Positions 5,771 through 41,607 of a stretch of DNA of 64,000 nucleotides are shown here, in pieces. The notes under the pieces are model-generated. The model searched no databases. It had not been told where the DNA came from and saw nothing but the letters and a program-made list of their open reading frames with translations. Source of the DNA: an uncultured Phascolarctobacterium sp. (GTDB taxonomy: Bacteria; Bacillota; Negativicutes; Acidaminococcales; Acidaminococcaceae); assembly GCF_900545535.1 (NCBI RefSeq), contig NZ_UQZN01000010.1; one strand, 5' to 3'. Made by a program: the position numbers and the translations under genes. The number at the start of each line of letters is the position of its first letter. The stretch's first letter is position 1.

Positions 5771-5773
5771 AAA

Positions 5774-7345: not shown

Positions 7346-7506
7346 CAAGCAATCGCTTTTGGACACCTGCTTTCTTACCATATTAAATTTTAAAATTTGA
7401 TAAAGTCAGCTTATTCATAATAAATTTTAAATAAACTATACAGTCATTATAAACTTCATGCTTTTTGTAGTCAAGCAAAAATTCTAAAATTCACTTTATT
7501 TCTTCA

Positions 7507-17074: not shown

Positions 17075-17445
17075 ACCAACTTAAAAATTCCAGCATTTCT
17101 GTTTTGCCGTTTCTAAACATGATCATCGTTTAGAAACTGTCATTTTACAGCAGTATGTAAGTACGCGTCACTACTCGCATTTTTACCTGCTGCTGTAAAA
17201 TTCGGACACTTTCAGCAAAAAATAACGCCGCATTTTCTACCAGTCCATTCGGTGAAAGTGCAGCGTTTGTTTTTACCAAACAGTCTGCTCCGCTTTTCTG
17301 GTCGAAAATACTAAAATTTCCGCGCTGCTGGTTTCAGCGCATAATCATAGCGTCCGCAGAAATATTTGCCTGACAAAACGCCAAACCTAAATATCTCTGC
17401 AAAATTTTCTCCCAGTCTGTCTACGCAGGCTGTTCAAAAGATAGA

Positions 17446-17570
17446 ACCAGTCAGCACTCTGACTCAAGATCATTACTCCAGCATCCCTTAGTGAAAGGAC
17501 TGCAATGCTGAAGCTCCCTAATACAGTTGCGTGACAGCGCCGGATTCACACCGGACTTCCCTATAAAACT
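17446..17570 (-). promoter_or_regulatory. Cobalamin riboswitch (proximal copy of a tandem pair) upstream of the autotransporter-TBDR gene
   Basis: Minus RNA UAUAGGGAAGUCCGGUGUGAAUCCGGCGCUGUCACGCAACUGUAUUAGGGAGC...GCAGUCCUUUCACUAAGGGAUGC...GAGUCAGAGUGCUGACUGG contains the conserved core and B12-box-like elements. Confidence 0.7.
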
Positions 17571-17744
17571 TTGGATTTCTACATTCCAAAATACCCAGCT
17601 CTAATTTTTCATTTTTGAAATTGTCAATGGACACGTCATTTATTACTCCAGCACTTGTGACCGCAAGCATGGATGCCGCCACCCCAGCGGCACCACGCCC
17701 AAAGGTCTGAGTTGAGTGGAGTTTGCAGGCTATGACTGAACCTG

Positions 17745-17829: not shown

Positions 17830-17945
17830 TCTCTCGCAGTAGTTAGACTGTCAGGCTGATTGCTGGCTTTAGGGCTAAACCCCTTACAGCGCCGGGAGCG
17901 CAGCGGAATTGCACCGCTTCTCATTTTGTGATTACCACCTGATAA
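17830..17945 (-). promoter_or_regulatory. Cobalamin riboswitch (distal copy of the tandem pair)
   Basis: Minus RNA AUCAGGUGGUAAUCACAAAAUGAGAAGCGGUGCAAUUCCGCUGCGCUCCCGGCGCUGUAAGGGGUUUAGCCCUAAAGCCAGCAAUCAGCCUGACAGUCUAACUACUGCGAGAGACAG matches the conserved core. Confidence 0.7.
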
Positions 17946-17966
17946 ACATTACTATTTTCTTGATAT

Positions 17967-20716: not shown

Positions 20717-21696
20717 TTTTTCGTCCCATTCGTATTTTCATAAACTATTGCATATAATTTTTCTATTCCTGCGGCGGCGTGGTGTGACAGGCAATTGACA
20801 TAGCTTTGCGGTATAACTACAGCCTGACGTTTTTGAATGGCGGTTATACCGGCATAGGCCGGGTCATTATATATTTCTTCCAGTTGTTCTTCGCTGTTTT
20901 TATATGCCCCGCCTTGCGACCATGAGCCAAGCAGTAGAAATTCCGGGTTGGTTTTGATAACTTCTTCTTTACTCAAAATACGGCTGGTGCCTGCATAGTC
21001 TTTGGTAACAGGGCGTGCCTGTTCATAGCAGTCGTCGATGCCGGCCGCAGTCATGATGTCGTTATAGATGCATCCTGCTCCGCCTATAGCTCCAAAGCGC
21101 AGGAAAAGCAAGGCTGAGCGGCGCTGCTGCGGTGGTATGGCTGCTACTTTGGCCTGCATTGCAGCGAGCCTTGCCTGCATATTTTTTACGATCTGCTCTG
21201 CCTGTTCGTTTTCGCCTACTGCGGCGCCCATACTGCGTACTAAGGCAGGGATTTCGTCGAGTCTGGAGATGTATTTAAAAACATATACTTTTATGCCTAC
21301 TTCTTCCAGGCTGTCTATATATTCACGCTTGGCAGTGTCCGGCACAAAAAGCAGATCAGGTTTCAATGCTACTATGGCTTCAAGGTTATTTTCTACTATG
21401 CCCTGTACGTCTGCAGCTTGTTTATAAGCCATCGACAGCCCCTGGTCGTGTACCCATTTACTGACGCCTGCTATTTTTTGATGCTCAACAAGGTCTAGCA
21501 ATATTTCATCGGCATAAACAAAGCTGCTGGCAATATGTTCAGGCTTTTTTTGAAAGCTGATTTCTTTACCGCGGAGGTCGCGTACTGTGTAACTTTGTTG
21601 CTGCTGCCCGCTAGATGGCAGCAGGTCAATATTTTTACTGCAGCCGCTTAGGCAGAAGGCCAGCGTCAATAGCAGGTACAGCAAATATTTGGGCAT
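20713..21696 (-). CDS. Periplasmic substrate-binding lipoprotein, class III (BtuF/FecB/HmuT-like)
   Basis: Lipobox LSGCS. Paralog of 4793..5770 and 31958..32947 (shared motifs LKPDLLFVPD, VYVFKY). Confidence 0.8.
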   Translation of the reverse strand: MPKYLLYLLLTLAFCLSGCSKNIDLLPSSGQQQQSYTVRDLRGKEISFQKKPEHIASSFVYADEILLDLVEHQKIAGVSKWVHDQGLSMAYKQAADVQGIVENNLEAIVALKPDLLFVPDTAKREYIDSLEEVGIKVYVFKYISRLDEIPALVRSMGAAVGENEQAEQIVKNMQARLAAMQAKVAAIPPQQRRSALLFLRFGAIGGAGCIYNDIMTAAGIDDCYEQARPVTKDYAGTSRILSKEEVIKTNPEFLLLGSWSQGGAYKNSEEQLEEIYNDPAYAGITAIQKRQAVVIPQSYVNCLSHHAAAGIEKLYAIVYENTNGTKK

Positions 21697-21734
21697 CGAC
21701 GGTCATCTCCCTTCGTTCAAAATATACTCTTTAT

Positions 21735-23552
21735 TTAAAAGGTGCGTTCATAGGTCAGCATCCAGTTGCGTTCTTCCAGCAATGCGCCGGAAGTACCGTT
21801 GCTGGAACCGGTTCTGATATCGTCTCTGTTCAGCAGATTATACACAGTCAGTCTTAAAGTGTCTTGATCTGTCAGTTTATGCGCAATGTTCATGTTAATG
21901 TCAAGCATCGGTTTGGTTCCATTTACGCGGCCTGCCATATAGTTGGCAAAAATATTGGCTGAAGTTTTTGCAAGTTTATAGCCTACGCCAGCGTTCAACC
22001 CCAGTTTAAAATCAGTGCGTTCCCATTCTCCGCTGCCAATGGTTTTCTGCTGCGGGTTGGCATAGGAAACTCCTAAATTGTAGCTGAATTTCTGGCTCAA
22101 AGCTTTTTCATAGCTCAGTTCAACGCCGGTATTACGGTATTTTTCGGCATTTTTATAAATATTAAGGCCAGTGGCACTATCTTTGGCACGATAGATCCTG
22201 TCATCGATTTCCATATGGAAAACATTTAATTTAAGCAGATCGCTGTCGGTAAATTTCTTTTTCCAGCCCAGTTCATAGTTCCAGCCGCTTTCTGCTTTCA
22301 GGTCAGGGTTCATGACCTGGGTAGATGTGCCCCATTGTTCGTTGACGTTGGGAGCGCGCATCGATTTATTGATGTTCAGGTAAAGATTTTCATTTTCTCT
22401 GAGGTTTTGCAATATTTGAAGCTGCGGGCAGAATTTACTGCCTGATTCTTCTACATATGCTTCGCGGGCGCCTAAAAACAGTTTTGTTTTGGCACCCAGC
22501 TGCGTTTCGGTCATGAAGAATACTGCACCGCTGTCACGTTTGGCGCTTTCAGCTCCGACAGTATTTTTGGTGTCTTCATTTTCATAGTTGGCGCCGGCCG
22601 TTAAAACAACCTTTCCCAGCTGCCATTTATTTTGAATATCGGCACCGATATTATGACCTTTTTGATGTGTAGTAGTATTGTATTTCCAATCTCTGCTGCG
22701 CATATATACGGCAGCGGATAAATCATTATTGTTATAGCGCATTTGCCCAAAATGATATTGGATATTGCTATGGAAACCAGGTGCATATTGCCCATTATTT
22801 AATTTGGAGCAGTCGGAAATCTTTTTGCTGTACATATATTGAAACAGCAAATTATCGGTTATATTATATTGCAGATTCAAGCTGTCTTTTTCCAGGTTAT
22901 CTCCCATATAAAAACTTGTAGGATTGGACTGATACACTTTGCCGCGCCCTTTGGATTGCTGACGGCTGTAACTGATTTGTAATTTATCGGTCGCAACATT
23001 GACTGCGCCTTTGAACTTATTTTTATCGCCCCAGCCTGCAAGGACTTTGGTTTTGCCCTGTTTTTTATTGGTTATGATATTGATGACACCGGCACTGGCG
23101 TTAGAGCCATATAATACTGCCGAGCCGCCTTTTACTACTTCGATCCTGTCAATGATGTCGGTCGAAATGGATTCAAGATCATAGTTACCGTCCTGATTGA
23201 GCGGAATGCCGTTGACTAAAATAGCAACATTATCCTTGGATACGCCTCTAAAACCAATATATGTGTTGCCCGTAGGCGAAGCAGTCAGCGTAAAGCCGGG
23301 TATATTTCTAACTACTTCCATGACATTGTTGGCACCCAAGCGTTCAATTTTTTCCTGGTCAAATATTTCCGTTGCCGCAGGGATCTCAAGGTCACGTGTT
23401 TCATAGCGCGTAGCAGTAACTAACACAGGGTCCAGTTCAAAGCGTTCTATCTCGTTTTGTTGTTTGTCAGCAAATGCTGTACCCCCCCAGATGACACTCC
23501 CGCTTATCAATGCTACCATCAGTGTACTTTTACTCAAACTTTTCTTCATCAT
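21735..23552 (-). CDS. TonB-dependent receptor (BtuB-like)
   Basis: SD AAGGAG before MMKKSLSKSTLMVALISGSVIWGGTAFA. TonB-box region LDPVLVTATR. Plug and barrel motifs. C-terminal LTYERTF. Confidence 0.85.
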   Translation of the reverse strand: MMKKSLSKSTLMVALISGSVIWGGTAFADKQQNEIERFELDPVLVTATRYETRDLEIPAATEIFDQEKIERLGANNVMEVVRNIPGFTLTASPTGNTYIGFRGVSKDNVAILVNGIPLNQDGNYDLESISTDIIDRIEVVKGGSAVLYGSNASAGVINIITNKKQGKTKVLAGWGDKNKFKGAVNVATDKLQISYSRQQSKGRGKVYQSNPTSFYMGDNLEKDSLNLQYNITDNLLFQYMYSKKISDCSKLNNGQYAPGFHSNIQYHFGQMRYNNNDLSAAVYMRSRDWKYNTTTHQKGHNIGADIQNKWQLGKVVLTAGANYENEDTKNTVGAESAKRDSGAVFFMTETQLGAKTKLFLGAREAYVEESGSKFCPQLQILQNLRENENLYLNINKSMRAPNVNEQWGTSTQVMNPDLKAESGWNYELGWKKKFTDSDLLKLNVFHMEIDDRIYRAKDSATGLNIYKNAEKYRNTGVELSYEKALSQKFSYNLGVSYANPQQKTIGSGEWERTDFKLGLNAGVGYKLAKTSANIFANYMAGRVNGTKPMLDINMNIAHKLTDQDTLRLTVYNLLNRDDIRTGSSNGTSGALLEERNWMLTYERTF

Positions 23553-23712
23553 CAGCTCTAACTCCTTGCCATTTAATGTGTAATACAGTAAAATCATATT
23601 AGTCACTATTATGCACGTTTTTTCTTTTTGATAATTTATTTAATTAGCTTTTGTTACTGTATTACTTATCTAATGATAAAGTATATAATGCTTATAGTGT
23701 CAAGGTGGTTTT

Positions 23713-24552
23713 ATGCAAAATATATCAAAAAATTATTTTACGCCCGGGGAACTTGCCAAATTAACTGGCATTTCCAAGCAGATTCTTCTTTATTATGATA
23801 AAAACAATATTTTTTCGCCTACCTTTGTCGATGACAAAGGTTATCGTTATTATTCTTTATCGCAGTATTTTTCTTTAGAAATTCTTATAACCATGCGTAA
23901 ACTGGATATTCCGCTTCAAGACATCATGGCGTATCTGCATAATAAAAATCTTCAGGACCTTAAAAAGATCTACAGTCAAAAATTAAGCGAATATCGATAT
24001 AAAATAAAGCAGCTGCAGCAATACGAAGCGGCGCTTGAAAAACGTCTGACCCGTTTGGATAAAATAGAAAACATACGCCTTGATCAGATAATGCTGTCTG
24101 AAGAGCCTGAACAGTTATATTATCAAAGCAAGGAAATTTTTTTAACCCAACCCACTAAAATACGGATTTTAAAAATTGCAGAGTATATGCTGCCGCATTT
24201 ACGTTCCCAGTTTTTAGAGGATTGTGTTATTGGTTTTTCGTTAGACCAGAATGAATTTCTTGACTGCGGCAAATTATCCAGATACAGGATCTTTGTACAG
24301 ATAGACGACTGTAATATAGATGCTGTTGCTGATATTCTCTGTAAAAAATCCGGCTTATATCTTTCGTTGTATTGTAATTGCCATTATGGGCTTATTGATG
24401 ATGACATCAAATTGAAAATTAAAAATTTCCTTGAACTGAATCATTTGAAGCCTTGCAGTGATATTTTTGTATTTCCTATCAGGAATTATTGGTCTGCCAC
24501 TACTACTAAAGAAGAAATTTCCCAGATTTGTCTGCAGGTAGAATATATTTGA
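23713..24552 (+). CDS. MerR-family transcriptional regulator with a C-terminal GyrI-like/effector-binding domain (BmrR/TipA-type)
   Basis: N-terminal HTH (YFTPGELAKLTGISKQILLYYDKNNIFSP...DDKGYRYYSLSQYFSLEILITMRKLDIPLQDI), coiled-coil dimerisation helix and a ~150-aa C-terminal ligand-binding domain. Divergent to the TBDR operon with only 106 bp between starts. Confidence 0.75.
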   Translation: MQNISKNYFTPGELAKLTGISKQILLYYDKNNIFSPTFVDDKGYRYYSLSQYFSLEILITMRKLDIPLQDIMAYLHNKNLQDLKKIYSQKLSEYRYKIKQLQQYEAALEKRLTRLDKIENIRLDQIMLSEEPEQLYYQSKEIFLTQPTKIRILKIAEYMLPHLRSQFLEDCVIGFSLDQNEFLDCGKLSRYRIFVQIDDCNIDAVADILCKKSGLYLSLYCNCHYGLIDDDIKLKIKNFLELNHLKPCSDIFVFPIRNYWSATTTKEEISQICLQVEYI

Positions 24553-26702: not shown

Positions 26703-26909
26703 ACTCAACTTCCTTTCACTACATTTTTATTATTGAAATAAAGACATTTCCTGTACTCATTCTTTATGACCGCACATTATTTGCCTTTACTTGCAATCAC
26801 CCAAAATAAAAATACCTTCTGCGCTAAGGCAAAAGGCATTGAACAGCTTAATTCAAAATAAAAGAAGCCGATAACATTACCTAACTGTCTCACGCAGCAG
26901 TAAAGTAAT

Positions 26910-27055
26910 TATCAGGCAGTTCTTCTGACTCAAGTTCATCATTCATCCAAGCCTTCCCAGATAAATTCCAGTGGCATATTTTGGATGAACTCACTTTTAC
27001 AGCGACGGGATCGTGTGGGTTTTACACCCAGCTTCTCTATTAAGACCTGTGTCAC
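26910..27055 (-). promoter_or_regulatory. Cobalamin riboswitch
   Basis: Minus RNA UUAAUAGAGAAGCUGGGUGUAAAACCCACACGAUCCCGUCGCUGUAAAAGUGAG...AUGCCACUGGAAUUUAUCUGGGAAGGCUUGG...GAGUCAGAAGAACUGCCUG, with a canonical GCCACUG B12 box. Confidence 0.8.
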
Positions 27056-27169
27056 CTGATAATATTCATATACATTTATTTTGCAAGTATACTATAAATA
27101 ATTTTACAATGCAATCTTTTATTTTTATTTGTTATTTAATTTTCTTTTTCAATAACTATTTTGTTGCAT

Positions 27170-28371: not shown

Positions 28372-28581
28372 TTGTATCGTTGCCTGTTTCCTTAAAATAT
28401 ACTACTATATTTTGTCTGCTTGCACATGTAGATTATTATAAACGGTTTGCAGTCATCAGTCAATAATCATTGCTATTTATATTATTATATTATTTGATTG
28501 ACTTTTCATCTGATTGGCAGTATTTTATAATTAGTTGTATTAGATTAAGTTTTCTATTTTTAATTAAAAGGAGGTTTGTTT

Positions 28582-29364
28582 ATGCCTGATTTTGTCAGTG
28601 ATTCTATTTTTAAAGACGCATTCTTAAGGGCTTCTCGTCATTATATAGAGGCATTAGATTTGCCTGCATTTGATTCGAGGCGTTCTTCTGATGCGAAAGA
28701 GGCTATTGATTCTGCTGCCTGTATCAACAACAGAATGCTGCAAAGCTTTGCCGCCGATTTGAACGAGCAGCAAAAAAGCGATGTTTTGAATTCAACTTTA
28801 TTGGCTCAATTAGCGGCAGATAAAGCTTATCCAAAAGATGAACACGGCCGTTATGACGTGAAAGGCTGGTACAATAAATTTTCAGAGGTTCTGCTGAATT
28901 TAGGCTGGGTAAGCCAGAATACGGCTTTCTGGCAATATAAAATACATGGTAAAAGCTTTACGGCCGACAAGGCTATTTTAGAAATCATCAACGGCCTGCT
29001 GCAAAACAACGCCTTGCTTTTAGCGCAGGCAACGATCAATGCTTTAAAAAATTTGCCCGAAAATGATTCTAAGCTCACTCTGTTTAAATTTAATACGTGT
29101 TCTGACCAAATGGGTAATATCAGTCTTGGTGTCTGCACGCAAAAGAACAGTCTGATAGAGTATGATTTTGCAGCGCTTTATCTGGAGACAAAAAAGAATT
29201 TTAAGCAGATTTTGTTTATTGATTTTTCAACTTCTGATTTTAAGCTGTTCGCAGGCACAAACACTATCACTCTTAATCCCGACGTTTACAGCATCGTTCG
29301 CGATCAGGTAGCGCAAAAGCTTCACGACAGGGTTGGCAGTTATCTTGCGGGGCTTGATATTTAA
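28582..29364 (+). CDS. Hypothetical protein
   Basis: 260-aa ORF preceded by SD AAGGAGG. Followed by a strong terminator. No recognised domain. Confidence 0.5.
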   Translation: MPDFVSDSIFKDAFLRASRHYIEALDLPAFDSRRSSDAKEAIDSAACINNRMLQSFAADLNEQQKSDVLNSTLLAQLAADKAYPKDEHGRYDVKGWYNKFSEVLLNLGWVSQNTAFWQYKIHGKSFTADKAILEIINGLLQNNALLLAQATINALKNLPENDSKLTLFKFNTCSDQMGNISLGVCTQKNSLIEYDFAALYLETKKNFKQILFIDFSTSDFKLFAGTNTITLNPDVYSIVRDQVAQKLHDRVGSYLAGLDI

Positions 29365-29380
29365 GGAGTATATATGTTAA

Positions 29381-29420
29381 TGGCAGGGCCTATAAGTGCC
29401 CTGCCATTTTTTATTTTTTG
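29381..29420. terminator. Rho-independent terminator shared by convergent genes
   Basis: GGCAGGGC ctataagt GCCCTGCC TTTTTTATTTTTTG. Confidence 0.65.
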
Positions 29421-30691
29421 TTGTTATTTATATATTCTAGCGTATTGATCTGATCGATAAGCAGCTGCATAAAATTTTGCCAGCCTCTTATACCGGCAAA
29501 AAAGATGTTTTTTGATTTTATTTTACAGGATGGCATGGAAAAGTTTAAATATAAAGTTTTGTCAAAATCGCCAATTGCCATTCGTTCTCTTTCACTGCCT
29601 AAAAACAGCTGGTAATTATCAGGTTTTAATTGCTCCAATACCATACTTTCGTCCCAATAGCGATATTTATTACTACAGCTGTCATTTTCCTGTATACTTC
29701 TTTTTAAATAAAATTCCTCAGCCAGCAAAAGTTCACATTCACTGTTTTGTATTCCCCTAAGTATACTATCGGCTATTGAGCAGGGTGCTGTTGTAATTAT
29801 GCGTTGTAATCTGTATTCTAAATAGTTATGTTTTACCAGGCAGCATTCATCAAAAATATCCTTTGCAGCTATTTCTATCTCGCTGTTAACAGCTTTTAAT
29901 TTTGGTGGCTGTTGTAATGCTTCACCTACAGCCTGCAGCCATGCAACAGTATTTGTAAAGCCATATGGCCAGGGAGCTATAATATATCGCTGCCCTGTTT
30001 GTTCATAAATACTTTCGGCGATCAAGCTGCCCATTTCTGGTGTCAGTACTATATTCAGTGCAGCTTCTGATAGTTTTTCCAGTTCTGCCAGTTCCAGCTG
30101 ATCTTCACCTAGTACAATACCTATTTCGTAACCTGCTGCTGAGAGAAGTCTTTTTATTTCTGCTAAATCTCCCTGCCAATGTGGAAAGCATGTACAGATT
30201 CCCAAAAGGTTGACTTTATTTTTTTGTCTGCTTGTAGAAACTTTAAAAGTACTTTTTTTGAGAAGCTCCAATAGCGCTTTTTGATAGCCATTTGCAAAAG
30301 CTCCTGTAAATCCACCTGTTTCTATGGCCAGAATAGGGCAAGTTACATTATTTTTTTTGCAAATCCCTTCTATATCGTCACCGATAAGGCTCATGGAACA
30401 ACTGGTTAAAACTGCAAGTAAGCTTGGATTGTTTACGTTTAATACTTCTGCCAGGCTGGCTGATAATGATTCTTCAACTCCATATAAAATATCTTTTTGC
30501 CTTGCTTCTGAACAGAAGAGCCTTGTTTCATAGTTTTTTACTGCATTTGTAAGTTCGCGTTCGCCTATTACTGCGCACCATCTGGGGCTGTTAAGGATAA
30601 CGCTTGTATTTTTAACGCTTAATATTGCTGCGGCTGCTCCAATCATTTGGCAATATCCTGTACATGGGCGAAATTTATTCAAATTATTCAT
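29411..30691 (-). CDS. Nitrogenase-like NifK/NifN/BchB-like subunit, paralog 2
   Basis: 426 aa. FRPCTGYCQMIGAAAAILSVKNTSVILNSPRWC. LTSCSMSLIGDD and CPILAIETGG motifs. Paralog of 18157..19449. 8-nt overlap with the D-like gene. Confidence 0.75.
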   Translation of the reverse strand: MNNLNKFRPCTGYCQMIGAAAAILSVKNTSVILNSPRWCAVIGERELTNAVKNYETRLFCSEARQKDILYGVEESLSASLAEVLNVNNPSLLAVLTSCSMSLIGDDIEGICKKNNVTCPILAIETGGFTGAFANGYQKALLELLKKSTFKVSTSRQKNKVNLLGICTCFPHWQGDLAEIKRLLSAAGYEIGIVLGEDQLELAELEKLSEAALNIVLTPEMGSLIAESIYEQTGQRYIIAPWPYGFTNTVAWLQAVGEALQQPPKLKAVNSEIEIAAKDIFDECCLVKHNYLEYRLQRIITTAPCSIADSILRGIQNSECELLLAEEFYLKRSIQENDSCSNKYRYWDESMVLEQLKPDNYQLFLGSERERMAIGDFDKTLYLNFSMPSCKIKSKNIFFAGIRGWQNFMQLLIDQINTLEYINNNKK

Positions 30692-31961
30692 GGATAAGAC
30701 TCCTGTTTTCCTTAAATAACAGATATAATTTTTCCAAAAATCTTATACTGCCGCCGATACCAATTCGTTTTCTTTTTATGCAATATTGATGTTTAAATGT
30801 TTCACGATAGTCACTTGTAATGATTATATCTTTTTCTGCATCTATTGGCAAAGGATAGTTTTCGTGATCTATTTTTAACTGCAAATTGTTTTTTGATATG
30901 AAATCTACGTATTCAGATTTTTCTTTTGCGGTGAGTTCGTTTAGTAAAATTACATGTTTTAGTTGTATACCAGCTTCCTGCAATAATGCAATAAATTCCA
31001 GCAGATTCCAAAATTTTATAGAGTGGCTGATAGCAAGCACGCAGCTTTTGCCATTTAAATAGCTTCGTAATTCAGTTATTTTACTCTGCCAGCGTTTTGT
31101 TTCGCATAAAATGGCTTGATCCGCAAGTTCTTTTTGATTGAGTTTAGCTCCCAGTTCTTGTAAATAAGCCAGCGTTTCCGTAATCGTCAATGGCAGACGT
31201 TTTTCAATGAACGGAATCTGCAGTTTTTGGGCAAAACCGGCAGCAAAATATTTATATTCATTTAATTTACTGTCAATAATAGAGTTCACGCCAACTACAC
31301 TGGCACTGCTAAGTTCCTGCATCTCTTTTATCGTCATCCCGCATGGCGGCAGCATAATATCATCAATGCCAAAATAATGGTACATTCTTCTTATTTCTTC
31401 TATGTCTTCTGTCATTAAATAGAACTTGTTAATACCAAAAATAACTGCACTTTTACTATTTTTAATAGCAGAAGAAGTCATAAATTTTTCCAGAAAATAC
31501 TTTGTTGTAAGCAAAAGCCCTTCCTGCTGCTGATTACTCATAAAACCGGCTCCGGGAATATGTATTACGGGTATTTTAAAATTCGCTTCTGTCTTTGCGC
31601 ATATCGCTTGAATATCATCACCTATGACACCAGCAGCACAACCTGATAAAACTACCAGGCATTCAGGGTTCTTAGCTTTGATTATCTCAGCCAAACTATT
31701 TTGCAGCAGTTTTTCTCCGCCAAAAATAGCTTCTCTATCTGTGATTCCTGTAATAAAAAGGTTATCATAATTTGGTGGTAATTTCTTTTTATATCTAAGT
31801 CTTATTCTTCGCCTGCTTTCAAGCAGAGCGTTGTACACTATGTGCGAGCACGACTTAGGTGCATGCAGTACGACTACTATTCCTTTATTAAAGGCAACCG
31901 ACATATAGATGTCACTTAAGTTACAATGAATAACTTTTTTACGATTTGTTTTCTTTATCAT
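30684..31961 (-). CDS. Nitrogenase-like NifD/NifE/BchN-like subunit, paralog 2
   Basis: 425 aa. KVIHCNL...HAPKSCSH. LSGCAAGVIGDD. Paralog of 19436..20716 (clearly homologous along the full length). 4-nt overlap with the binding-protein gene. Confidence 0.75.
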   Translation of the reverse strand: MIKKTNRKKVIHCNLSDIYMSVAFNKGIVVVLHAPKSCSHIVYNALLESRRRIRLRYKKKLPPNYDNLFITGITDREAIFGGEKLLQNSLAEIIKAKNPECLVVLSGCAAGVIGDDIQAICAKTEANFKIPVIHIPGAGFMSNQQQEGLLLTTKYFLEKFMTSSAIKNSKSAVIFGINKFYLMTEDIEEIRRMYHYFGIDDIMLPPCGMTIKEMQELSSASVVGVNSIIDSKLNEYKYFAAGFAQKLQIPFIEKRLPLTITETLAYLQELGAKLNQKELADQAILCETKRWQSKITELRSYLNGKSCVLAISHSIKFWNLLEFIALLQEAGIQLKHVILLNELTAKEKSEYVDFISKNNLQLKIDHENYPLPIDAEKDIIITSDYRETFKHQYCIKRKRIGIGGSIRFLEKLYLLFKENRSLIHE

Positions 31962-32947
31962 ATCTGTTTTGCCTGCTTTATCGATCCAATTTTTGCAAAA
32001 TATTCTGGATATGTTTTTTGAGCTATGTCTAAGATACCGTCACCTATATATTGCGAAGCCGCATATCTGTAGCGATCTTTTATGATAATGACATTATTAT
32101 TTTTGATTGCTTTGATGCTCTGCAGTGCCGGGTCTTTTAAAACTTCTTTTCTAAAAAGTACGGTATCGCCTTCCTGGGTCGAACTGTAATCTGGAAACAT
32201 CAAAACGTCAGGGTTGACTTCTACTATTTTTTCTTTGCTTAGATGTTCACCACGAACAAGGCCCGCTACGGCAGCGCCGTTGATTACGCCGGCATTGATA
32301 CAGATGTCGTTGAACAGACCTTCTGCACTTCCAAAAACCCCCAGCAGCGAATACCCCATCAATATCTTTTTTTCTTCTGCCGGTATTGCACCGATCACGT
32401 CTTTTACAAGCTTTGTTTTATGATCCAATTCGTCAATTATTCTGTTTCCCTGCTGCTGTTCATTTACAGCCACCGATAAATTAATTATTCTTTGACGTAC
32501 CATGTCCAGCGTGGTAGGCACTTTGGTTATATATACCTTTAGCCCCACATCTTTTAAGGCTTGGATAAATGCTGTGTTTGAGTTTTCCTGCACGATCACA
32601 AGGTCGGGTTTAAGGGCAAGAATTTGTTCTACGCTTACTTTTTGCGGAAGTTTCAGGGGAATCTGCGCAGCTTTATCGATAATCAATGATGTTTTAGGAT
32701 CAGCAGCTGGTTCCGAGATTGCTGCAATGCGTTTTAAAGGAACCATATCTGTGAGTATTTCTTCAAGACTGAGCGTTGTGGCATAGATTCGTTTAGGGGA
32801 TTCGCTAAAATGCAGAATATTCCCTTTGTCGTCAGTTACCTGATACTGAGTTTGAACTGCCGTGTTTTCAATAACAGTGTTTGGTTTTTCAAAGCTGCAG
32901 CCTGTTACCGCTAGTATCATGATTATTGCTAAAATAAAACTGCGCAT
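31958..32947 (-). CDS. Periplasmic substrate-binding lipoprotein, class III (BtuF/FecB-like), paralog
   Basis: Lipobox VTGCS. Motifs LKPDLVIVQE and KVYITKVP. Confidence 0.8.
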   Translation of the reverse strand: MRSFILAIIMILAVTGCSFEKPNTVIENTAVQTQYQVTDDKGNILHFSESPKRIYATTLSLEEILTDMVPLKRIAAISEPAADPKTSLIIDKAAQIPLKLPQKVSVEQILALKPDLVIVQENSNTAFIQALKDVGLKVYITKVPTTLDMVRQRIINLSVAVNEQQQGNRIIDELDHKTKLVKDVIGAIPAEEKKILMGYSLLGVFGSAEGLFNDICINAGVINGAAVAGLVRGEHLSKEKIVEVNPDVLMFPDYSSTQEGDTVLFRKEVLKDPALQSIKAIKNNNVIIIKDRYRYAASQYIGDGILDIAQKTYPEYFAKIGSIKQAKQI

Positions 32948-32979
32948 TCTGTTCTCCTGTCAAAAATTTTTATTGATTT

Positions 32980-34884
32980 TTAAAATAAAATTTTATAACC
33001 GATTTCAAAGTTTCTACCTAAAGAAATATACCTGGAAGATACATGGGAAGTAATATCTCGTCTATTTAATAAATTATCGACATTTAAGAAAATTTCATGA
33101 TTTTTTACAGGTCTATAGGCGGCATGTAAGCTTGTGTAGAAATAAGGTTTAATCTTCTCTTGATATTTTTGCAAAACACGATCTGCCATAAAACTTCCAT
33201 TTAGACTTACATTAAATTTATCCTGCTGATAATTTAGTCCGCCGTTCAACAACCATCTACCATAATTTCTTTTCCACTTACCATCATCTTCATCTGCAGA
33301 TTTATATTTAGGATTACTGTAAGATACGCCCCAATTACTACTGAATCCATTTTTACCAGTTACTTCACAATTAATTTCAATTCCCATGTTTTTTGTATCC
33401 TCATTGACTGCATATGTTTCTCCTGTTGCTGCGACAGTAGCACCAGTAATAAAATCTTTTACATCACTTTTAAACAGCGCTAACTTCCAGGAATGAATAC
33501 CAGAAATATATTTTAAACCAGTTTCATAATGCATACCAACTTCCGGTCTGATTTGTGTATTTTTTATTATCTGATCTTTACCATACATATCAGTCAATGT
33601 TGGCAGTGTAAAAGATTTACCTACACTGGCATAAGCACTTAAATCGTCTGTCATTTTATGTAAATACTGAATCTGTGGAGTAAATTCACTGTAATTAGTA
33701 CCATCTGGACTACTGCCTGTCCATGTTTCTCTCGCTCCAAGGATCAGATTATTTTTTTTATCAAATTTATGATCTACCTGTGCAAAAAAAGAATATACAT
33801 TTCTGTCATAGTCATACTCTAGTTTCGGTTGTTTTTTATAGGCAGGATCATAGAAGTTATAATAATTATAGCCTTCGTTGTACATTTTTACCCCAACAAG
33901 TACTGTATCATTTTTAGTTTCAAATTCTTTCGTTACATCTAAGCCCATTACCTTATCATCATTTCCGTAGAAATATGCATCTTTAAAAATTATATTATTT
34001 TTCCAATAATGATATTTGGTATCAGAACTGGATTTATGATAAAAAGCATTAGCATTCCAGCCGTCTTTATGATAACTTAGTACAAATTTATATTCTTCTT
34101 TATCTAAGAATCTTTTATCAGTTGGCAAGCCAGTACTTGTTTGATTATAGCTTCTTTTATAATCATAATTATTGTAATCGGCAGTAACTCTCCACGCATC
34201 ATCAAATTTATAATTCATAGACAGGATAGTTTTTTCACCGCCTAAAAAATTAAAATATTTATCACCTTCTGAAGTATGGTATATATTACCTTTTTTATTC
34301 CAGTTGGCACCAATCCCTAATTTACCTGCTTGTAAAGATGTCGCATATTTTTGTACTCCATAATTACCTACTGTTGCTGAGATACTATTAGTTCTTTTAT
34401 TTTTTGTAATAATGTTTATAACACCACCAGTTGCATCACTGCCATAAAGCACGGCACCACCACCACGTACTATTTCAATACGCTCTACATCTGCAATATT
34501 TATTCTGTCAAGATCATAATAACCGGTTCTGACATTTAATGGCACACCATCAACTAACACCATAGTTCCACGCCGTTTTCCTCTAATTAAAAATTCACCG
34601 CCGCCATCTCCTGCAGTTTCTGATTTATAGACAATACCGGCAGCATATTTTAAAGCACCTTCAACTGTTGTCGCACCTGTATCTTCCAATTGTTTACTTG
34701 TATAAACACTTGTCGTAGCAGGTACATCTAAATCTCTTTTTTCAGTTCTGGTAGCAGTTACAACCATTGGATCCAGAGTAAAAATCTGTTCCGGTTCTTC
34801 TGCATGTACTGCTGTGCCCCCCCAGATGACACTACCAGTTATCAGTGCTGCCATAAGCGCGCTTTTGTTCAAGCTTTTCTTCAT
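32980..34884 (-). CDS. TonB-dependent receptor (BtuB-like), paralog
   Basis: SD AAAGGAAG before MKKSLNKSALMAALITGSVIWGGTAVHA. TonB box LDPMVVTATR. Plug (VRGGGAVLYGSDATGGVINIITK). C-terminal IGYKILF. Confidence 0.85.
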   Translation of the reverse strand: MKKSLNKSALMAALITGSVIWGGTAVHAEEPEQIFTLDPMVVTATRTEKRDLDVPATTSVYTSKQLEDTGATTVEGALKYAAGIVYKSETAGDGGGEFLIRGKRRGTMVLVDGVPLNVRTGYYDLDRINIADVERIEIVRGGGAVLYGSDATGGVINIITKNKRTNSISATVGNYGVQKYATSLQAGKLGIGANWNKKGNIYHTSEGDKYFNFLGGEKTILSMNYKFDDAWRVTADYNNYDYKRSYNQTSTGLPTDKRFLDKEEYKFVLSYHKDGWNANAFYHKSSSDTKYHYWKNNIIFKDAYFYGNDDKVMGLDVTKEFETKNDTVLVGVKMYNEGYNYYNFYDPAYKKQPKLEYDYDRNVYSFFAQVDHKFDKKNNLILGARETWTGSSPDGTNYSEFTPQIQYLHKMTDDLSAYASVGKSFTLPTLTDMYGKDQIIKNTQIRPEVGMHYETGLKYISGIHSWKLALFKSDVKDFITGATVAATGETYAVNEDTKNMGIEINCEVTGKNGFSSNWGVSYSNPKYKSADEDDGKWKRNYGRWLLNGGLNYQQDKFNVSLNGSFMADRVLQKYQEKIKPYFYTSLHAAYRPVKNHEIFLNVDNLLNRRDITSHVSSRYISLGRNFEIGYKILF

Positions 34885-34989
34885 CAAATTCAACTTCCTT
34901 TCAATTTTCAATTTACTTTCACCTTGCTTTAAAAGTGTTAAAAAATAGAAAAGCCCCCTTTTCCAAAAAACAGATAAGGAGGAATAGAG

Positions 34990-35115
34990 GCTAAATTCGT
35001 GCCTGTTCTCCCCTATACTGTCTCTCGCAGAAATAGAGTTACTGGTAAAAGCTGACTTAAGCAGTATTTTACTGCTAATACAGCGGCGGGACCGTGTTAG
35101 ATTCTCACTAACTTT
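34990..35115 (-). promoter_or_regulatory. Divergent or possibly shortened cobalamin-riboswitch-like leader
   Basis: Minus RNA GUGAGAAUCUAACACGGUCCCGCCGCUGUAUUAGCAGUAAAAUACUGCUUAAGUCAGCUUUUACCAGUAACUCUAUUUCUGCGAGAGACAG aligns with the 17830..17945 aptamer (CCCGCCGCUGUA, hairpin, GUCAGC, identical 3' CUGCGAGAGACAG). The GGUG-containing P2/P3 segment appears reduced. Confidence 0.4.
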
Positions 35116-35220
35116 TATTTATTATACATTACCAGTATCAAATATCAAATTTATTTTTCTACTATGTGTGATATAATACTATGTATAGTCATTAGACAGT
35201 CAAGAGGTTGGTGAAAATTT

Positions 35221-36051
35221 ATGGAGAAAAATAAAAAAAAATTATTTACGACCGGTGAGCTGGCTTCTTTATGTAAAATCCACAGAAAAACTTTGCTTTT
35301 TTATGACAGGCTTGGTTTGATCACACCGGAATTTATCGATGCTAACGGTTATCGTTATTATTCGAGAAGGCAGTTTTTTTCTTTAGAAATCATTTTGGCA
35401 TTACGTAAATTAGATGTATCATTACCTGAAATAGCGGAATATCTTAAGCATAAATCCACCTCTAATTACAAAAATTTACTTACAAGACGTGCCAATATAT
35501 TAGATCAGATTTTATCTGATCTTCAAAAAATGCGTAATGAACTCAGCGAGAGAATATGTTTTTTGGAAAATACCGAAACTTTTCCTCTGGAAATAATAAC
35601 TTTGATAAATGAAGAGGAAGATTATCTTTGTCTAAGTGATCCGGTGCCACAGAATGCTGATTTAAAAATCAGAACAAAAATTTCCGCTAAACATTTATTA
35701 ACTTTATCAGATTATATAACTTTTAATAATCACGTTTCTGGTTATATACTTGATAAAAATTCTTTTCTGGCTTGTGAACGTCCGTATACTAAATATTTTT
35801 ATCAATCCTTTACACAGCCTTTTGACTTACCTTATTTTTTCCTTAAACCTGCAGGATTATATGCCACAATTTACTTTAAAGGTATTTATTGCTCGTATGG
35901 CAAACCTTATATTGATCAGTTATATAGATATCTACAGGAAAACAATTTACAGGCTGTCAGTGATATTTACATGACTTCGATCAGAAATCATTGGGTCACT
36001 GATGATAACGGCAGTTATTTAAATAAATTATCAATACAGGTAAAAAAATAA
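35221..36051 (+). CDS. MerR-family regulator with a GyrI-like effector domain, paralog of 23713..24552
   Basis: LFTTGELASLCKIHRKTLLFYDRLGLITPEF...ANGYRYYSRRQFFSLEIILALRKLDVSLPEI. Same architecture. Divergent to the TBDR operon. Confidence 0.75.
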   Translation: MEKNKKKLFTTGELASLCKIHRKTLLFYDRLGLITPEFIDANGYRYYSRRQFFSLEIILALRKLDVSLPEIAEYLKHKSTSNYKNLLTRRANILDQILSDLQKMRNELSERICFLENTETFPLEIITLINEEEDYLCLSDPVPQNADLKIRTKISAKHLLTLSDYITFNNHVSGYILDKNSFLACERPYTKYFYQSFTQPFDLPYFFLKPAGLYATIYFKGIYCSYGKPYIDQLYRYLQENNLQAVSDIYMTSIRNHWVTDDNGSYLNKLSIQVKK

Positions 36052-41372: not shown

Positions 41373-41449
41373 GGCCCGGTGGTTCAGTTGGTTAGAATGC
41401 CGCCCTGTCACGGCGGAGGTCGTGGGTTCGAGTCCCATCCGGGTCGCCA
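41373..41449 (+). tRNA. tRNA-Asp (GUC)
   Basis: Cloverleaf: acceptor GGCCCGG/CCGGGTC, anticodon arm CCGCC-CUGUCAC-GGCGG, T-arm GTGGG TTCGAGT CCCAT, CCA encoded. Confidence 0.9.
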
Positions 41450-41452
41450 TTT

Positions 41453-41527
<75 letters not shown>

Positions 41528-41531
41528 TTTT

Positions 41532-41607
41532 AGGGGTATAGCTCAACTGGTAGAGTAGCGGTCTCCAAAACCGTTGGTTGTGGGTTCGATTCCTACTGCC
41601 CCTGCCA
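41532..41607 (+). tRNA. tRNA-Trp (CCA)
   Basis: Acceptor AGGGGTA/TGCCCCT. Anticodon arm GCGGT-CTCCAAA-ACCGT. TTCGATT T-loop. CCA encoded. Confidence 0.85.

Follow-up and report, generated by a model that had tools for sequence, protein, structure and literature searches.

Locus B, at positions 29411-36051 of the 64,000-nucleotide stretch of DNA analyzed here (the window), is best explained as one of a pair of ancient paralogous modules that combine uptake with processing and serve corrinoid scavenging in a Phascolarctobacterium-like diderm Firmicute of the gut. Its nitrogenase-like D and K proteins would form the catalytic core of an uncharacterized nitrogenase-like reductase acting on an imported corrinoid or other tetrapyrrole in B12 salvage, with the NifH donor and the permease encoded elsewhere. 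We give each of these two statements a probability of about 0.55. Two old, intact modules in a B12-scavenging island point to an undescribed nitrogenase-type reductase for imported B12-like molecules. All of the functional evidence comes from gene context; we infer which class of ligand is imported, that a NifH and a permease act in trans, and that any reduction takes place.

Organization of locus B

The ORFs of locus B were found at the coordinates given in a first-pass annotation of this DNA, and the peptides quoted there are the N termini of the D proteins of locus B and of its paralog, locus A. A BmrR-like MerR regulator on the plus strand is followed, divergently, by genes for a TonB-dependent receptor (TBDR), a lipoprotein periplasmic binding protein (PBP), and the D-like and K-like proteins, all on the minus strand.

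29379-29408, no strand assigned: G+C-rich palindromic hairpin, 3 nt beyond the K stop codon, terminator-like in the scan
29411-30691, minus: K-like gene, nitrogenase-like beta-type subunit, 426 aa (PF00148 Oxidored_nitro, E 3e-48)
30684-31961, minus: D-like gene, nitrogenase-like alpha-type subunit, 425 aa (PF00148 Oxidored_nitro, E 2e-45)
31958-32947, minus: PBP, periplasmic binding lipoprotein, 329 aa (Peripla_BP_2 PF01497, E 2.5e-22)
32980-34911, minus: TBDR, BtuB-like TonB-dependent outer-membrane receptor (Pfam Plug and TonB_dep_Rec barrel)
35006-35130, minus: cobalamin (AdoCbl) riboswitch aptamer in the leader (Rfam RF01482)
35121-35148, minus: candidate second sigma-70-like promoter, TTGATA, 16 nt, TATAAT, 11/12 (pattern match in a consensus scan)
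35173-35203, minus: putative MerR-type promoter, TTGACT, 19-bp spacer with a short dyad, TATTAT (read from the sequence)
35221-36051, plus: BmrR-like MerR-family regulator, 276 aa (Pfam MerR_1, MerR, MerR-DNA-bind)

The operon is tightly packed, with a 4-nt overlap between the PBP and D genes and an 8-nt overlap between D and K. The TBDR, which probably starts at the ATG at 34884, carries the TonB box LDPMVVTA, and the PBP has the lipobox AVTGC. The hairpin beyond K, whose T-run was scored on the plus strand only, likely marks the end of the operon and is likely common to the convergent ORF at 28576-29364.

Two old and intact paralogous modules

Pairwise BLASTP bore out the proposal that locus B repeats locus A gene for gene, with paralogs that are homologous yet diverged (27 to 41% identity): TBDR, 31% (E 7e-71); PBP, 27% (E 5e-39); D, 38% (E 9e-104); K, 41% (E 2e-120); and MerR, 31% (E 1e-39). 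This resemblance is far above chance level; within one locus, D and K share just 22 to 26% identity. The suggestion that the two modules differ in ligand specificity is plausible, with PBPs 27% and TBDRs 31% identical.

18157-24552, no strand assigned: locus A, paralogous module with the gene order of locus B
18157-19449: K
19436-20716: D
20713-21696: PBP
21735-23606: TBDR (probable ATG at 23552)
23673-23703: putative MerR-type promoter
23713-24552, plus: MerR regulator

Neither D/K pair is a pseudogene, a possibility raised earlier: the frames are full length, every family-invariant residue is kept, and dN/dS is 0.12 to 0.14 (D, 0.12, and K, 0.14, against the orthologues in locus L006, at a dS of ∼2, near saturation). 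D and K are under strong purifying selection.

Locus B is also AT-richer, as described, with GC3 values of 0.22 to 0.38 versus 0.34 to 0.47 in locus A (0.40 to 0.47 in the four operon genes, 0.34 in MerR); sampled core genes range from 0.44 to 0.55. The separate horizontal acquisition read from this difference gained no specific support. The A-type and B-type clades are neighbors inside one Phascolarctobacterium-like clade of family 1 (NJ tree, no bootstrap). The closest relative, L006 (uncultured Phascolarctobacterium UMGS1431), has both loci in the same order and place, collinear with window positions 41424-20639 at 75 to 83% nucleotide identity. Both loci are AT-rich in L006 (GC3, 0.22 to 0.30), so that low GC is a long-standing property of these loci and not a sign of recent import of B alone. 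That the duplication is not recent agrees with the 38 to 41% identity of D and K and with the occurrence of A-type and B-type clades each in several species; the A/B split is ancient and internal to the lineage. Window and L006 are mosaic, with a dS of 0.24 for the locus B TBDR and ∼2 for PBP-D-K, and with a shift in the GC3 of locus A.

Conserved neighborhoods of D and K

Relatives of D and K are almost all from Negativicutes. A TBDR and/or a PBP adjoins D-K in about 13 of the 15 readable family-1 loci, and TBDR/PBP type follows D/K type, A-type with A-type and B-type with B-type. The NJ trees of D and K are congruent, and each D/K type is inherited together with its own TBDR/PBP type. The four genes are thus a conserved unit, as had been argued, and their linkage is not coincidental. 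The accompanying idea of a transporter plus its dedicated enzyme is incomplete: the module also needs an Fe protein of the NifH type and a permease of the FecCD/ABC type. The window encodes neither, which weakens our explanation, as both the source of electrons and the passage through the inner membrane have to be assumed.

The sister family (family 2) is organized as NifH-D-K-PBP-FecCD-(ABC)-CobN-radical SAM. A cobalamin riboswitch lies directly upstream of NifH in two of its loci (L044, 90.9 bits; L032, 62.3 bits), and its CobN matches cobaltochelatase CobN (7c6o, 724 bits) better than ChlH (549) or the heme dechelatase HmuS (396). On one contig, a family-1 D-K pair (L007) and a family-2 NifH operon (L038) are about 18 to 20 kb apart. 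A Succiniclasticum ruminis operon reads CbiZ, AP_endonuc_2, ChlI, ChlD, TBDR, PBP, PBP, D, K, CN_hydrolase, NifH, CN_hydrolase. CbiZ is found within 10 kb in L005, L007, L010, L013, L020, and L021 and also in L023, L024, L029, L036, and L038; amidases likewise recur near the D/K relatives.

B12 context, regulation, and uptake genes

The first 36 kb of the window form a corrinoid-uptake island with five cobalamin riboswitches (the locus B leader and four more), five TBDRs, three PBPs, and TonB-ExbBD. An AP_endonuc_2 gene behind a riboswitch also favors the B12 reading. The energizing genes lie in an operon controlled by a riboswitch at 7196-7385.

2932-3717, minus: TonB (Pfam TonB_C)
3714-4127, minus: ExbD (Pfam ExbD)
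4143-4781, minus: ExbB (Pfam MotA_ExbB)

TonB-ExbBD (2932-4781) likely energizes the island TBDRs in trans, that of locus B presumably included. The first-pass annotation had overlooked the cobalamin riboswitch and the B12-salvage context, which narrow the probable ligand class to corrinoids or tetrapyrroles. That a salvage step of this kind is needed at all is unproven, given that de novo B12 synthesis has been predicted for Phascolarctobacterium species (PMC7568257).

The locus B riboswitch is borderline: it scores 50.2 bits (E 3e-6 to 9e-7), barely at the gathering score of 50, some of its outer helix is deleted, and its RNA fold z is -3.0. A hairpin with a U-run after the aptamer, at about 35040-34955, could be a terminator. 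The candidate sigma-70-like promoter sits just upstream of the riboswitch. The L006 leader scores 32.2 bits with RF00174; being near-identical to that of locus B, it is not independent evidence, and the riboswitch is "conserved" only there, which counts against our explanation. Other B-type loci (L001, L007-L009) have no riboswitch at the gathering threshold, and the Rfam search found none in the locus A leader even at E ≤ 1. The marginal score and incomplete helix at locus B and the missing riboswitches at these other loci count against our explanation as well. The TTGAC-N19-TAnnnT architecture recurs at locus A and in L006, L001, L011, and L028, as well as in family-2 loci L017, L018, L023, L028, and L038; its function as a MerR-type promoter is suggested by known MerR-family promoter design, and its presence in both families favors our explanation. 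Of the "MerR/GyrI" regulator described earlier, the MerR part was confirmed by its Pfam helix-turn-helix. Pfam found no match and no GyrI-like domain in the C-terminal half alone, and the GyrI assignment is supported only indirectly, by a full-length alignment of residues 5-274 with the BmrR structures 3iao and 1exi (E about 5e-8).

The locus B TBDR scores best with the NCBIfam TonB-B12 model TIGR01779 (138 bits, cut-off 599.7), and among solved structures it matches E. coli BtuB best (E 1e-18, over plug and barrel); this closeness to BtuB favors our explanation. The PBP is class III, of the BtuF/heme/siderophore type. Two points count against a corrinoid ligand: the TBDR is far under the curated BtuB cut-off, and heme- and siderophore-binding proteins resemble the PBP more than BtuF does (E 0.003). 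The TBDR and PBP might instead import heme or a ferric chelate that D/K reduces, with reductive iron release or porphyrin/vinyl reduction, in parallel with HmuS/BtuS of gut Bacteroidota. Both families are of the generic iron-complex type, hemin and siderophore models score the TBDR close to the B12 model, and the best solved PBP relatives include heme-binding 2r7a (ShuT-type), 3nu1/3md9 (HmuT), and 2q8p (IsdE), besides the top match 5gj3, which we take to be a heme-binding PBP as well. CobN-like proteins, moreover, can act as heme dechelatases (PMC6460266, PMC12583661). We nevertheless regard an iron or heme function as unlikely: locus B and two family-2 operons are under cobalamin riboswitches, CbiZ and AP_endonuc_2 (CbiR-like) are B12-specific neighbors, the associated CobN is much nearer true CobN than HmuS, and neither leader has a Fur-box-like site (up to 3 mismatches).

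D and K retain P-cluster cysteines and lack cofactor ligands

All six NifD/NifK P-cluster cysteines are retained and invariant across the family: D C13, C38, and C108 align with NifD Cys62/88/154, and K C14, C39, and C98 align with NifK Cys70/95/153. K has an additional C10, specific to family 1. In the alignment, D has no Cys at the NifD Cys275/NifE L-cluster position, and a deletion removes the His442 region; D/K are without the Cys/His residues that ligate FeMo-co or the L-cluster. The AF2 model of D (pLDDT 88.5) matches MarD (9d9u_A, TM ∼0.6) best, then NifEN and NifDK, and the best solved relative of K is MarK (9d9u_C, E 9e-19). In both sequence and fold, the nearest relatives of D/K are Mar, NifEN, and NifDK rather than the known tetrapyrrole reductases DPOR, COR, and CfbD, which counts against a tetrapyrrole substrate.

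D/K might convert an imported precursor into a new tetrapyrrole-type cofactor, as CfbCD- or Group VI-like biosynthetic NFL enzymes, instead of serving B12 salvage. The NifH partner in relatives scores nearly equally with nifH and CfbC models, genes for radical SAM/SPASM proteins and amidases lie alongside the system, and Group VI NFL have been proposed as tetrapyrrole modifiers from context (PMC13474568). This we judge distinctly unlikely, since a riboswitch that is off at high AdoCbl suits B12 supply and not an unrelated cofactor, the system is set among btuB-like uptake genes, CbiZ, and CobN, and Group VI D/K lack some of the P-cluster cysteines that the window family retains.

D/K might also be noncatalytic: with no NifH and no reduction, it would act as a scaffold in the manner of NifEN, or would sense redox state or hold the imported ligand. 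This would fit the lack of NifH within 10 kb in most family-1 loci, both window loci included. Both subunits score best with the NCBIfam model of NifE (85 to 99 bits, cut-off 505), and the D/K fold presumably shares a Pfam clan with periplasmic binding proteins and chelatases. The invariance of the six cysteines, the strong purifying selection, the NifH within the S. ruminis operon and throughout the sister family, and the pairing of both families on one contig make such a role improbable. A Mar/Isr-type reductase for C-S bond cleavage in sulfur assimilation, linked to transporter genes by chance, is very improbable, even with MarDK as the closest solved relative (E 1e-17 to 9e-19; TM ∼0.6) and Mar-like systems suggested for Negativicutes in a 2026 review (PMC13474568), as D lacks the Cys where Mar binds its L-like cluster and Nif its M-cluster, no neighborhood read holds NifB/MarB or sulfur-metabolism genes, and the TBDR and PBP linkage is conserved.

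Proposed mechanism

In the corrinoid-salvage reading, transcription would start at the MerR-type promoter, activated across its 19-bp spacer by the divergent regulator on binding a probably planar ligand, and the transcript would pass the AdoCbl riboswitch, turning the operon off when B12 is plentiful. The BtuB-like TBDR, powered by TonB-ExbBD, would bring a corrinoid-like tetrapyrrole through the outer membrane, and the PBP would hand it to a permease of the BtuCD type, encoded at another locus. Within the cytoplasm, D and K would assemble into a heterotetramer resembling NifDK, with a [8Fe-7S] site of the P-cluster type where the two subunits meet. The electron source would be an ATPase resembling NifH or CfbC from another locus, probably an operon with the NifH-D-K-PBP-FecCD-CobN layout of the relatives. 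Because D lacks FeMo-co and L-cluster ligands, the electrons would pass directly to a large organic substrate bound in its cavity, as they do in DPOR, COR, and CfbCD. Candidate reactions are reduction of the ring, reduction of Co, or a step that readies the substrate for (de)metalation by CobN; the reduced product would then enter B12 salvage or remodelling (CbiZ, CbiR-like, CobN, amidases). To our knowledge, no NFL enzyme sends P-cluster electrons directly to a tetrapyrrole, which counts against this scheme.

Comparison with known systems

MarDK (NFL Group IV-C; PDB 9d9u, 9fmg), the closest solved relative of both subunits in sequence and fold, shares the D/K heteromer architecture, the six P-cluster cysteine positions, and the need for a NifH-like Fe protein, which may serve several D/K pairs. 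In the window D, the Cys anchoring the L-like cluster is missing, the window proteins are about 100 residues shorter and only about 16 to 25% identical, and TonB-dependent uptake and B12 salvage take the place of MarB/NifB and sulfur genes. NifEN, the FeMo-co maturase scaffold, is the top NCBIfam model and among the best fold matches; the scores are far under its cut-off, the NifE L-cluster Cys is missing from D, and the window has no nif genes.

DPOR (BchLNB), COR (BchXYZ), and CfbCD, NFL catalytic components that bind a tetrapyrrole directly without an M-cluster, are the working analogy for D/K and similar in size (about 420 to 430 aa); the NifH-like protein of the relatives is as CfbC-like as NifH-like. 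DPOR has a [4Fe-4S] cluster with three Cys and one Asp, and CfbD is homomeric (PMC13474568), whereas the window family retains 3+3 Cys, as in the P-cluster. The D/K NCBIfam scores are far under every cut-off, DPOR is missing from the top 50 matches to the predicted fold, and the known enzymes are biosynthetic, without importer linkage. The Group VI NFL of Elusimicrobia are, like D/K, orphans whose sole functional clue is tetrapyrrole-related gene context. Some of their P-cluster cysteines are missing, many radical SAM genes surround them, and they are found in Elusimicrobia, Myxococcales, and Gracilibacteria, whereas the window family, almost all Negativicutes, has six Cys and is linked with uptake genes, CobN, and CbiZ.

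Locus B resembles BtuB-BtuF(-BtuCD) in its TonB-dependent receptor, closest to E. coli BtuB, its class III binding protein, a cobalamin riboswitch in front, and TonB-ExbBD nearby. Its TBDR and PBP are under the curated BtuB and BtuF thresholds, and it has no permease or ATPase; two cytoplasmic nitrogenase-like genes are instead translationally coupled to the binding-protein gene, and a BmrR-like activator adds a layer of control. That regulator aligns over its full length with BmrR, a MerR-family protein with a GyrI-like effector domain, and likewise has a divergent target with a 19-bp promoter spacer. Identity is low and its C-terminal domain is not recognized by Pfam, and its target is an uptake and enzyme operon rather than an efflux pump.

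Organization of loci A and B

All five open reading frames (ORFs) of locus B were found where the first-pass annotation had placed them. They encode nitrogenase-like α-type (D) and β-type (K) subunits, a periplasmic binding protein (PBP), a TonB-dependent receptor (TBDR), and a divergent MerR-family regulator.

29411-30691, minus strand: K-like protein, 426 aa; Pfam PF00148 (Oxidored_nitro), E = 3e-48
30684-31961, minus strand: D-like protein, 425 aa; Pfam PF00148 (Oxidored_nitro), E = 2e-45
31958-32947, minus strand: PBP, 329 aa; Peripla_BP_2 (PF01497), E = 2.5e-22; lipobox AVTGC
32980-34911, minus strand: TBDR; Pfam Plug and barrel domains
35221-36051, plus strand: MerR-family regulator; Pfam MerR helix-turn-helix domains

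The likelier TBDR start is the ATG at 34884, which is preceded by GAAAGGAAG. The PBP is a class III (Peripla_BP_2) lipoprotein, with the PF01497 domain and a signal peptide carrying the lipobox, MRSFILAIIMILAVTGC. The PBP and D genes overlap by 4 nt and the D and K genes by 8 nt, a packing that is suited to translational coupling. Locus A (18157-24552) contains the same five genes in identical order, and pairwise BLASTP, with identities of 27 to 41%, bore out the view that locus B repeats it gene for gene (TBDR, 31%; PBP, 27%; D, 38%, E = 9e-104; K, 41%, E = 2e-120; MerR, 31%); D and K within one locus are 22 to 26% identical. Locus B is also AT-richer than locus A and the core genes, as first described: GC3 is 0.22 to 0.38, against 0.40 to 0.47 for locus A (0.34 for its MerR gene) and 0.44 to 0.55 for sampled core genes. 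Three consecutive tRNA genes (41373-41604, plus strand) lie where the AT-richer island (GC content, about 0.34 to 0.46) gives way to the GC-richer core (about 0.49).

Riboswitches and MerR-type regulation

The first-pass annotation overlooked the B12 context of locus B, which is apparent from the following elements.

35006-35130, minus strand: AdoCbl riboswitch (RF01482), Rfam score 50.2 bits against a gathering threshold of 50
26898-27074: cobalamin riboswitch, Rfam score 109 bits, preceding a solo TBDR gene
17433-17613 and 17837-17957, minus strand: cobalamin riboswitches in tandem, 42.6 and 43.8 bits
7196-7385, minus strand: cobalamin riboswitch, 102.6 bits, heading the 2932-7385 operon
2932-7385, minus strand: operon with genes for an AP_endonuc_2 protein (5774-6766, 330 aa), a PBP (4793-5770), ExbB, ExbD, and TonB
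35203-35173: MerR-type promoter of locus B, TTGACT-N19-TATTAT, within a few bases of the divergent MerR gene
23703-23673: MerR-type promoter of locus A, TTGACA-N19-TATCAT, within a few bases of the divergent MerR gene

The 35006-35130 riboswitch lies in the operon leader of locus B, downstream of the promoter and ahead of the TBDR start. The match is borderline, with a portion of the outer helix absent; the conserved core (GGUCCCGCCGCUGU...AAGUCAG) is clearly recognizable, and a hairpin with a U-run comes after it. Five TBDRs, three PBPs, and TonB-ExbBD lie in the window's first 36 kb, and together with the five cobalamin riboswitches these uptake genes identify the region as a corrinoid-acquisition island. 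The product of 5774-6766 is an AP_endonuc_2/xylose-isomerase-like TIM-barrel protein; the cobamide-remodeling enzyme CbiR is a member of the AP_endonuc_2 superfamily, and the gene is possibly CbiR-like. An AP_endonuc_2-like gene also adjoins CbiZ in Succiniclasticum ruminis (1264-2220 of its locus, L013).

The tandem aptamers follow the stop codon of K in locus A and precede the next ORF (11876-17074, minus strand), an arrangement unusual for one leader. This ORF is uninterrupted over 1,732 aa and encodes a signal peptide and passenger-like region, an Autotransporter β-domain (residues 659-903), a Gly/Ser-rich linker, and a full TBDR with Plug (residues 1044-1146) and barrel (residues 1269-1692). 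A product with two outer-membrane barrels reflects either a peculiar fusion or an artifact of assembly or frameshifting.

The locus B regulator matches Pfam MerR_1, MerR, and MerR-DNA-bind, and with the adjacent 19-bp-spacer promoter it has the features of a MerR/BmrR-type activator. Its earlier description as MerR/GyrI held in part: the protein aligns with BmrR over its whole length, but in a search for a GyrI-like domain neither MerR protein gave a Pfam match with its C-terminal half. Control of locus B seems to pair an inducer-dependent activator with a riboswitch that B12 represses. Locus A has the activator only, and its leader contains no riboswitch, even at E ≤ 1 (Rfam).

Transporter components

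The locus B TBDR has the Plug, the barrel, and a TonB box. E. coli BtuB is its best solved structure, and TonB-B12 is its best NCBIfam model, at 138 bits far below the cutoff of 599.7; transporter families by themselves do not fix the ligand. Neither a six-frame P-loop motif scan nor BLASTP with every ORF of 60 aa or longer revealed a NifH, FecCD permease, or ABC ATPase in the 64-kb window, which accordingly holds D and K of a nitrogenase-like (NFL) system (H, D, and K) and lacks H. Since five TBDRs and three PBPs are accompanied by no FecCD or ABC gene, the inner-membrane step must be encoded elsewhere.

Predicted cofactor sites and fold of D and K

Both proteins match Oxidored_nitro across most of their length, which places them in the nitrogenase component 1 superfamily. 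The first gene encodes an α-type subunit (best solved relative, MarD, 9d9u_A; best NCBIfam models, nifE and nitrogenase α) and the second a β-type subunit (best solved relative, MarK, 9d9u_C); Foldseek confirmed 9d9u as the methylthio-alkane reductase of R. rubrum. The best fold neighbors of an AF2 model of locus B D (pLDDT, 88.5) were MarD, NifEN, and NifDK, with TM of about 0.6, and DPOR was not among the top 50 structural matches.

Cysteine positions were aligned to canonical NifD, NifE, and NifK from nif clusters. C13, C38, and C108 are invariant in an alignment of 24 D-type homologues, and C14, C39, and C98 are invariant in the K-type family; an extra C10 is specific to family 1, which comprises the window-type proteins. 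The six invariant cysteines coincide with NifD Cys62, Cys88, and Cys154 and NifK Cys70, Cys95, and Cys153. At the position of NifD Cys275 and the NifE L-cluster ligand, Cys is absent from the D family, and alignment to NifD showed that the segment carrying His442 is deleted. Retention of the six P-type cysteines and loss of Cys275 and His442 argue that the D/K interface can hold a predicted P-cluster-type site, without M- or L-cluster ligands, a cofactor set unusual for the superfamily. Values of dN/dS of 0.12 to 0.14 place D and K under purifying selection, although dS is close to saturated. The suggestion that one pair might be a pseudogene was rejected on these values and on the presence of the family-invariant cysteines.

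Related loci and their neighborhoods

Only about 47 strong cluster-level homologues of the D protein were present among 5.8 billion proteins, those with names coming from Phascolarctobacterium and Dialister. A scan of species-representative genomes located loci in Phascolarctobacterium, S. ruminis, Dialister, Selenomonadales, Schwartzia, and Veillonellaceae, and the ORFs of all related loci (L001 to L045) were classified by BLASTP. Six loci (L009, L014, L017, L019, L027, and L032) have Phascolarctobacterium- or Dialister-type gene content in metagenome-assembled genomes labeled Lachnospiraceae, Paludibacteraceae, Bacteroides sp., Duodenibacillus, Segatella copri, and Acholeplasmataceae; these labels probably reflect binning errors rather than transfer.

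Family 1 consists of A-type and B-type clades, and the order TBDR-PBP-D-K, with a divergent MerR gene, is found in both (L006 and L011 for the A type; L001 to L003 and L006 to L009 for the B type). Variants are TBDR-PBP-PBP-D-K (L010 and L013), TBDR-amidase-D-K (L012), and CobN upstream of D-K (L014); in L004, TBDR and PBP are both absent. A TBDR, a PBP, or both lie in the cluster at about 13 of the 15 family-1 loci, a survey result that supports the proposal of a four-gene functional unit. NifH occurs within 10 kb of family-1 D-K in S. ruminis alone, where the operon reads CbiZ, AP_endonuc_2, ChlI, ChlD, TBDR, PBP, PBP, D, K, CN_hydrolase, NifH, CN_hydrolase.

The sister family, family 2, shares 22 to 30% identity with the window D and K and occurs commonly in Phascolarctobacterium, P. 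succinatutens CAG:287 among them. All of its loci encode NifH in cis; the usual order is a MerR gene and then, divergently, NifH-D-K-PBP-FecCD-(ABC)-CobN-radical SAM (SPASM). This operon is represented by L017 to L045 (for example, L023 8194-19457 of P. succinatutens CAG:287) and appears to be undescribed. Its NifH scores near equally with the nifH model and the model for the F430 reductase CfbC. CbiZ is frequently nearby, and in L044 a CN_hydrolase gene follows the radical SAM gene. A cobalamin riboswitch lies immediately upstream of NifH in L044 (90.9 bits) and L032 (62.3 bits); no upstream MerR gene was seen in either locus, the L032 contig beginning just upstream of the riboswitch. Most family-2 loci, and the B-type loci L001 and L007 to L009, have no riboswitch at the gathering threshold. 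The 19-bp-spacer promoter architecture recurs in L006, L001, L011, L028, and five family-2 loci. On one contig, L007 (family 1) and L038 (family 2) are about 18 to 20 kb apart, which makes supply of NifH in trans realistic.

Other genes also recur. In L004 (5144-12884) and L011 (1941-12871), A-type D-K is flanked upstream by genes for a 1,412-aa BcrAD_BadFG/DUF2229 activase-like ATPase and a TM1506-family protein and downstream by one for a small Cys-rich zf-like (PF04071) protein; as an alternative donor, this ATPase might deliver electrons at the expense of ATP. A CGGC-domain protein is encoded after K in the B-type loci L001 to L003. No specific NCBIfam family was found for the AP_endonuc_2, CGGC, zf-like, and TM1506 neighbors. 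Nitrilase-superfamily amidase genes stand beside D-K or CobN in L005, L010, L012, L013, L014, and L044, sometimes in two copies, and in L012 one lies between TBDR and D. Recurrence of these amidase genes may point to a substrate whose amide side chains are hydrolyzed.

History of the two loci

L006, from uncultured Phascolarctobacterium UMGS1431, is the nearest relative and is collinear with window positions 41424-20639, at 83 and 75% nucleotide identity. It carries loci A and B in the same places as the window, and the duplication is therefore older than the split of these species; the first-pass annotation was right that this is not a recent tandem duplication. Its further suggestion, separate horizontal acquisition, received no specific support: the A-type and B-type clades are neighbors inside family 1 in neighbor-joining trees (no bootstrap), with D and K trees in agreement, and both L006 loci are AT-rich (GC3, 0.22 to 0.30). 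The AT-richness of both L006 loci also led us to reject the reading of locus B as a recent horizontal import; low GC is an old property of the loci, not a sign of recent import of B alone. It is locus A of the window, not locus B, that departs in composition from its L006 counterpart (GC3, 0.40 to 0.47 versus 0.24 to 0.29, a gap too large for a dS estimate).

Comparison of window 29411-34911 with L006 6433-12009 showed that the locus B TBDR is 96% identical, with a dS of 0.24, whereas PBP, D, and K are 75, 68, and 63% identical, with a dS of about 2. This difference indicates recombination inside the operon, with a breakpoint between TBDR and PBP. Old duplication within the lineage and later recombination fit these data better than separate acquisition does.

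A possible role in corrinoid salvage

From gene context, the best-supported reading is that D and K form the catalytic core of an uncharacterized NFL reductase in the B12 regulon. The substrate would be a corrinoid or tetrapyrrole delivered by the TBDR and PBP of the module itself; a NifH/CfbC-like ATPase would donate electrons, and a BtuCD-type permease would provide inner-membrane transport, both encoded elsewhere. Without M- or L-cluster ligands, the pair is more likely to reduce a large organic substrate directly, in the manner of DPOR, COR, and CfbCD, and a six-Cys site in such an enzyme would be new. The partners that recur are the CobN-type chelatase with ChlI/ChlD, nitrilase-superfamily amidases, CbiZ, the AP_endonuc_2 protein, and the SPASM radical SAM enzyme; they suggest that the enzyme acts on the corrin macrocycle, on its metal, or on its amide side chains.

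More specifically, we propose, with a probability of roughly 0.3, that D/K and a NifH/CfbC-like ATPase constitute the first NFL enzyme to act on imported corrinoids, a new B12-salvage step in gut and rumen Negativicutes. Such an enzyme might carry out ATP-driven, low-potential reduction of the corrin ring or cobalt, or a step enabling CobN-type metalation or demetalation, with the P-cluster handing electrons directly to the organic macrocycle. The B12 riboswitch and the ligand-sensing BmrR-like activator would together control expression, and the two paralogous modules may serve different corrinoid classes.

Several other roles were considered. The locus B PBP is somewhat nearer to heme-type binding proteins than to BtuF, and the module might act in heme or iron acquisition, which we regard as unlikely; a Fur-box search gave no match to the 19-mer and matches to the 15-mer confined to coding regions, neither leader has a Fur-box-like site, and the family-2 chelatase scores higher with cobaltochelatase CobN (724 bits) than with ChlH (549 bits) or the heme dechelatase HmuS (396 bits). 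Somewhat less probable still is an NFL protein of cofactor biosynthesis. A noncatalytic or scaffold role is doubtful, given the conserved six-Cys site. The poorest candidate, a sulfur enzyme like Mar, was rejected because D lacks the L-cluster cysteine; no NifB-like gene was found among the neighborhoods read.

For the corrinoid reading, the context is unusually explicit: the D and K genes share translational coupling with those of a BtuB/BtuF-like importer and come under both a cobalamin riboswitch and a ligand-responsive activator, and in relatives they adjoin CobN, CbiZ, amidases, and a NifH/CfbC-like protein, so that an orphan NFL clade becomes a directly testable hypothesis. It points to an unrecognized step in the acquisition or recycling of B12-family cofactors by abundant succinate-to-propionate bacteria of the gut and rumen, including Phascolarctobacterium, Dialister, and Succiniclasticum, all of which need the B12-requiring methylmalonyl-CoA mutase. 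Phascolarctobacterium species are dependent on this enzyme and are predicted to make B12 de novo (PMC7568257).

Comparison with known nitrogenase-like systems

To our knowledge, the majority of NFL clades have no known function. NCBI names D/K-type proteins only "nitrogenase component 1," and no curated NCBIfam model reaches its cutoff for D or K. Literature searches found no description of NFL genes linked to TBDRs, cobalamin riboswitches, or CobN in Negativicutes; a search on the CobN-like chelatase BtuS likewise brought up no account of such a system, and PMC7160235, PMC10846266, and PMC6460266 proved irrelevant to it. A 2026 review (PMC13474568) divides Group IV into IV-A (Nfa), IV-B (CfbD), IV-C (Mar), and IV-D and IV-E, both of unknown function and given without organism or accession details; according to the same review, gene context has so far been of little help beyond hints of sulfur (Group IV) and tetrapyrrole (Group VI) roles.

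The window family differs from several NFL systems. True nitrogenases (Groups I to III) and Mar are set apart by a Cys at the Cys275 position, and true nitrogenases by His442 as well; equivalents of both are absent from D. Most Group IV sequences combine P-cluster cysteines with a predicted L-cluster (PMC13474568), a rule from which the window D/K family departs. Group VI, from Elusimicrobia and with a proposed tetrapyrrole role (PMC13474568), lacks some P-cluster cysteines, and membership was rejected on that basis; it differs also in taxonomy and gene context. The known tetrapyrrole NFL reductases are DPOR, COR, and CfbD; NCBIfam scores fall well short of the curated cutoffs (BchB, 51 to 80 bits versus 490; BchN, 28 to 36 versus 420; CfbD, 32 to 33 versus 268). 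The DPOR site consists of three Cys and an Asp, whereas the window β-type subunit has Cys in place of Asp, and CfbD is homomeric, whereas the window D and K form a heteromeric pair. We conclude that the D/K system is a real, intact, and conserved NFL variant, apparently undescribed.
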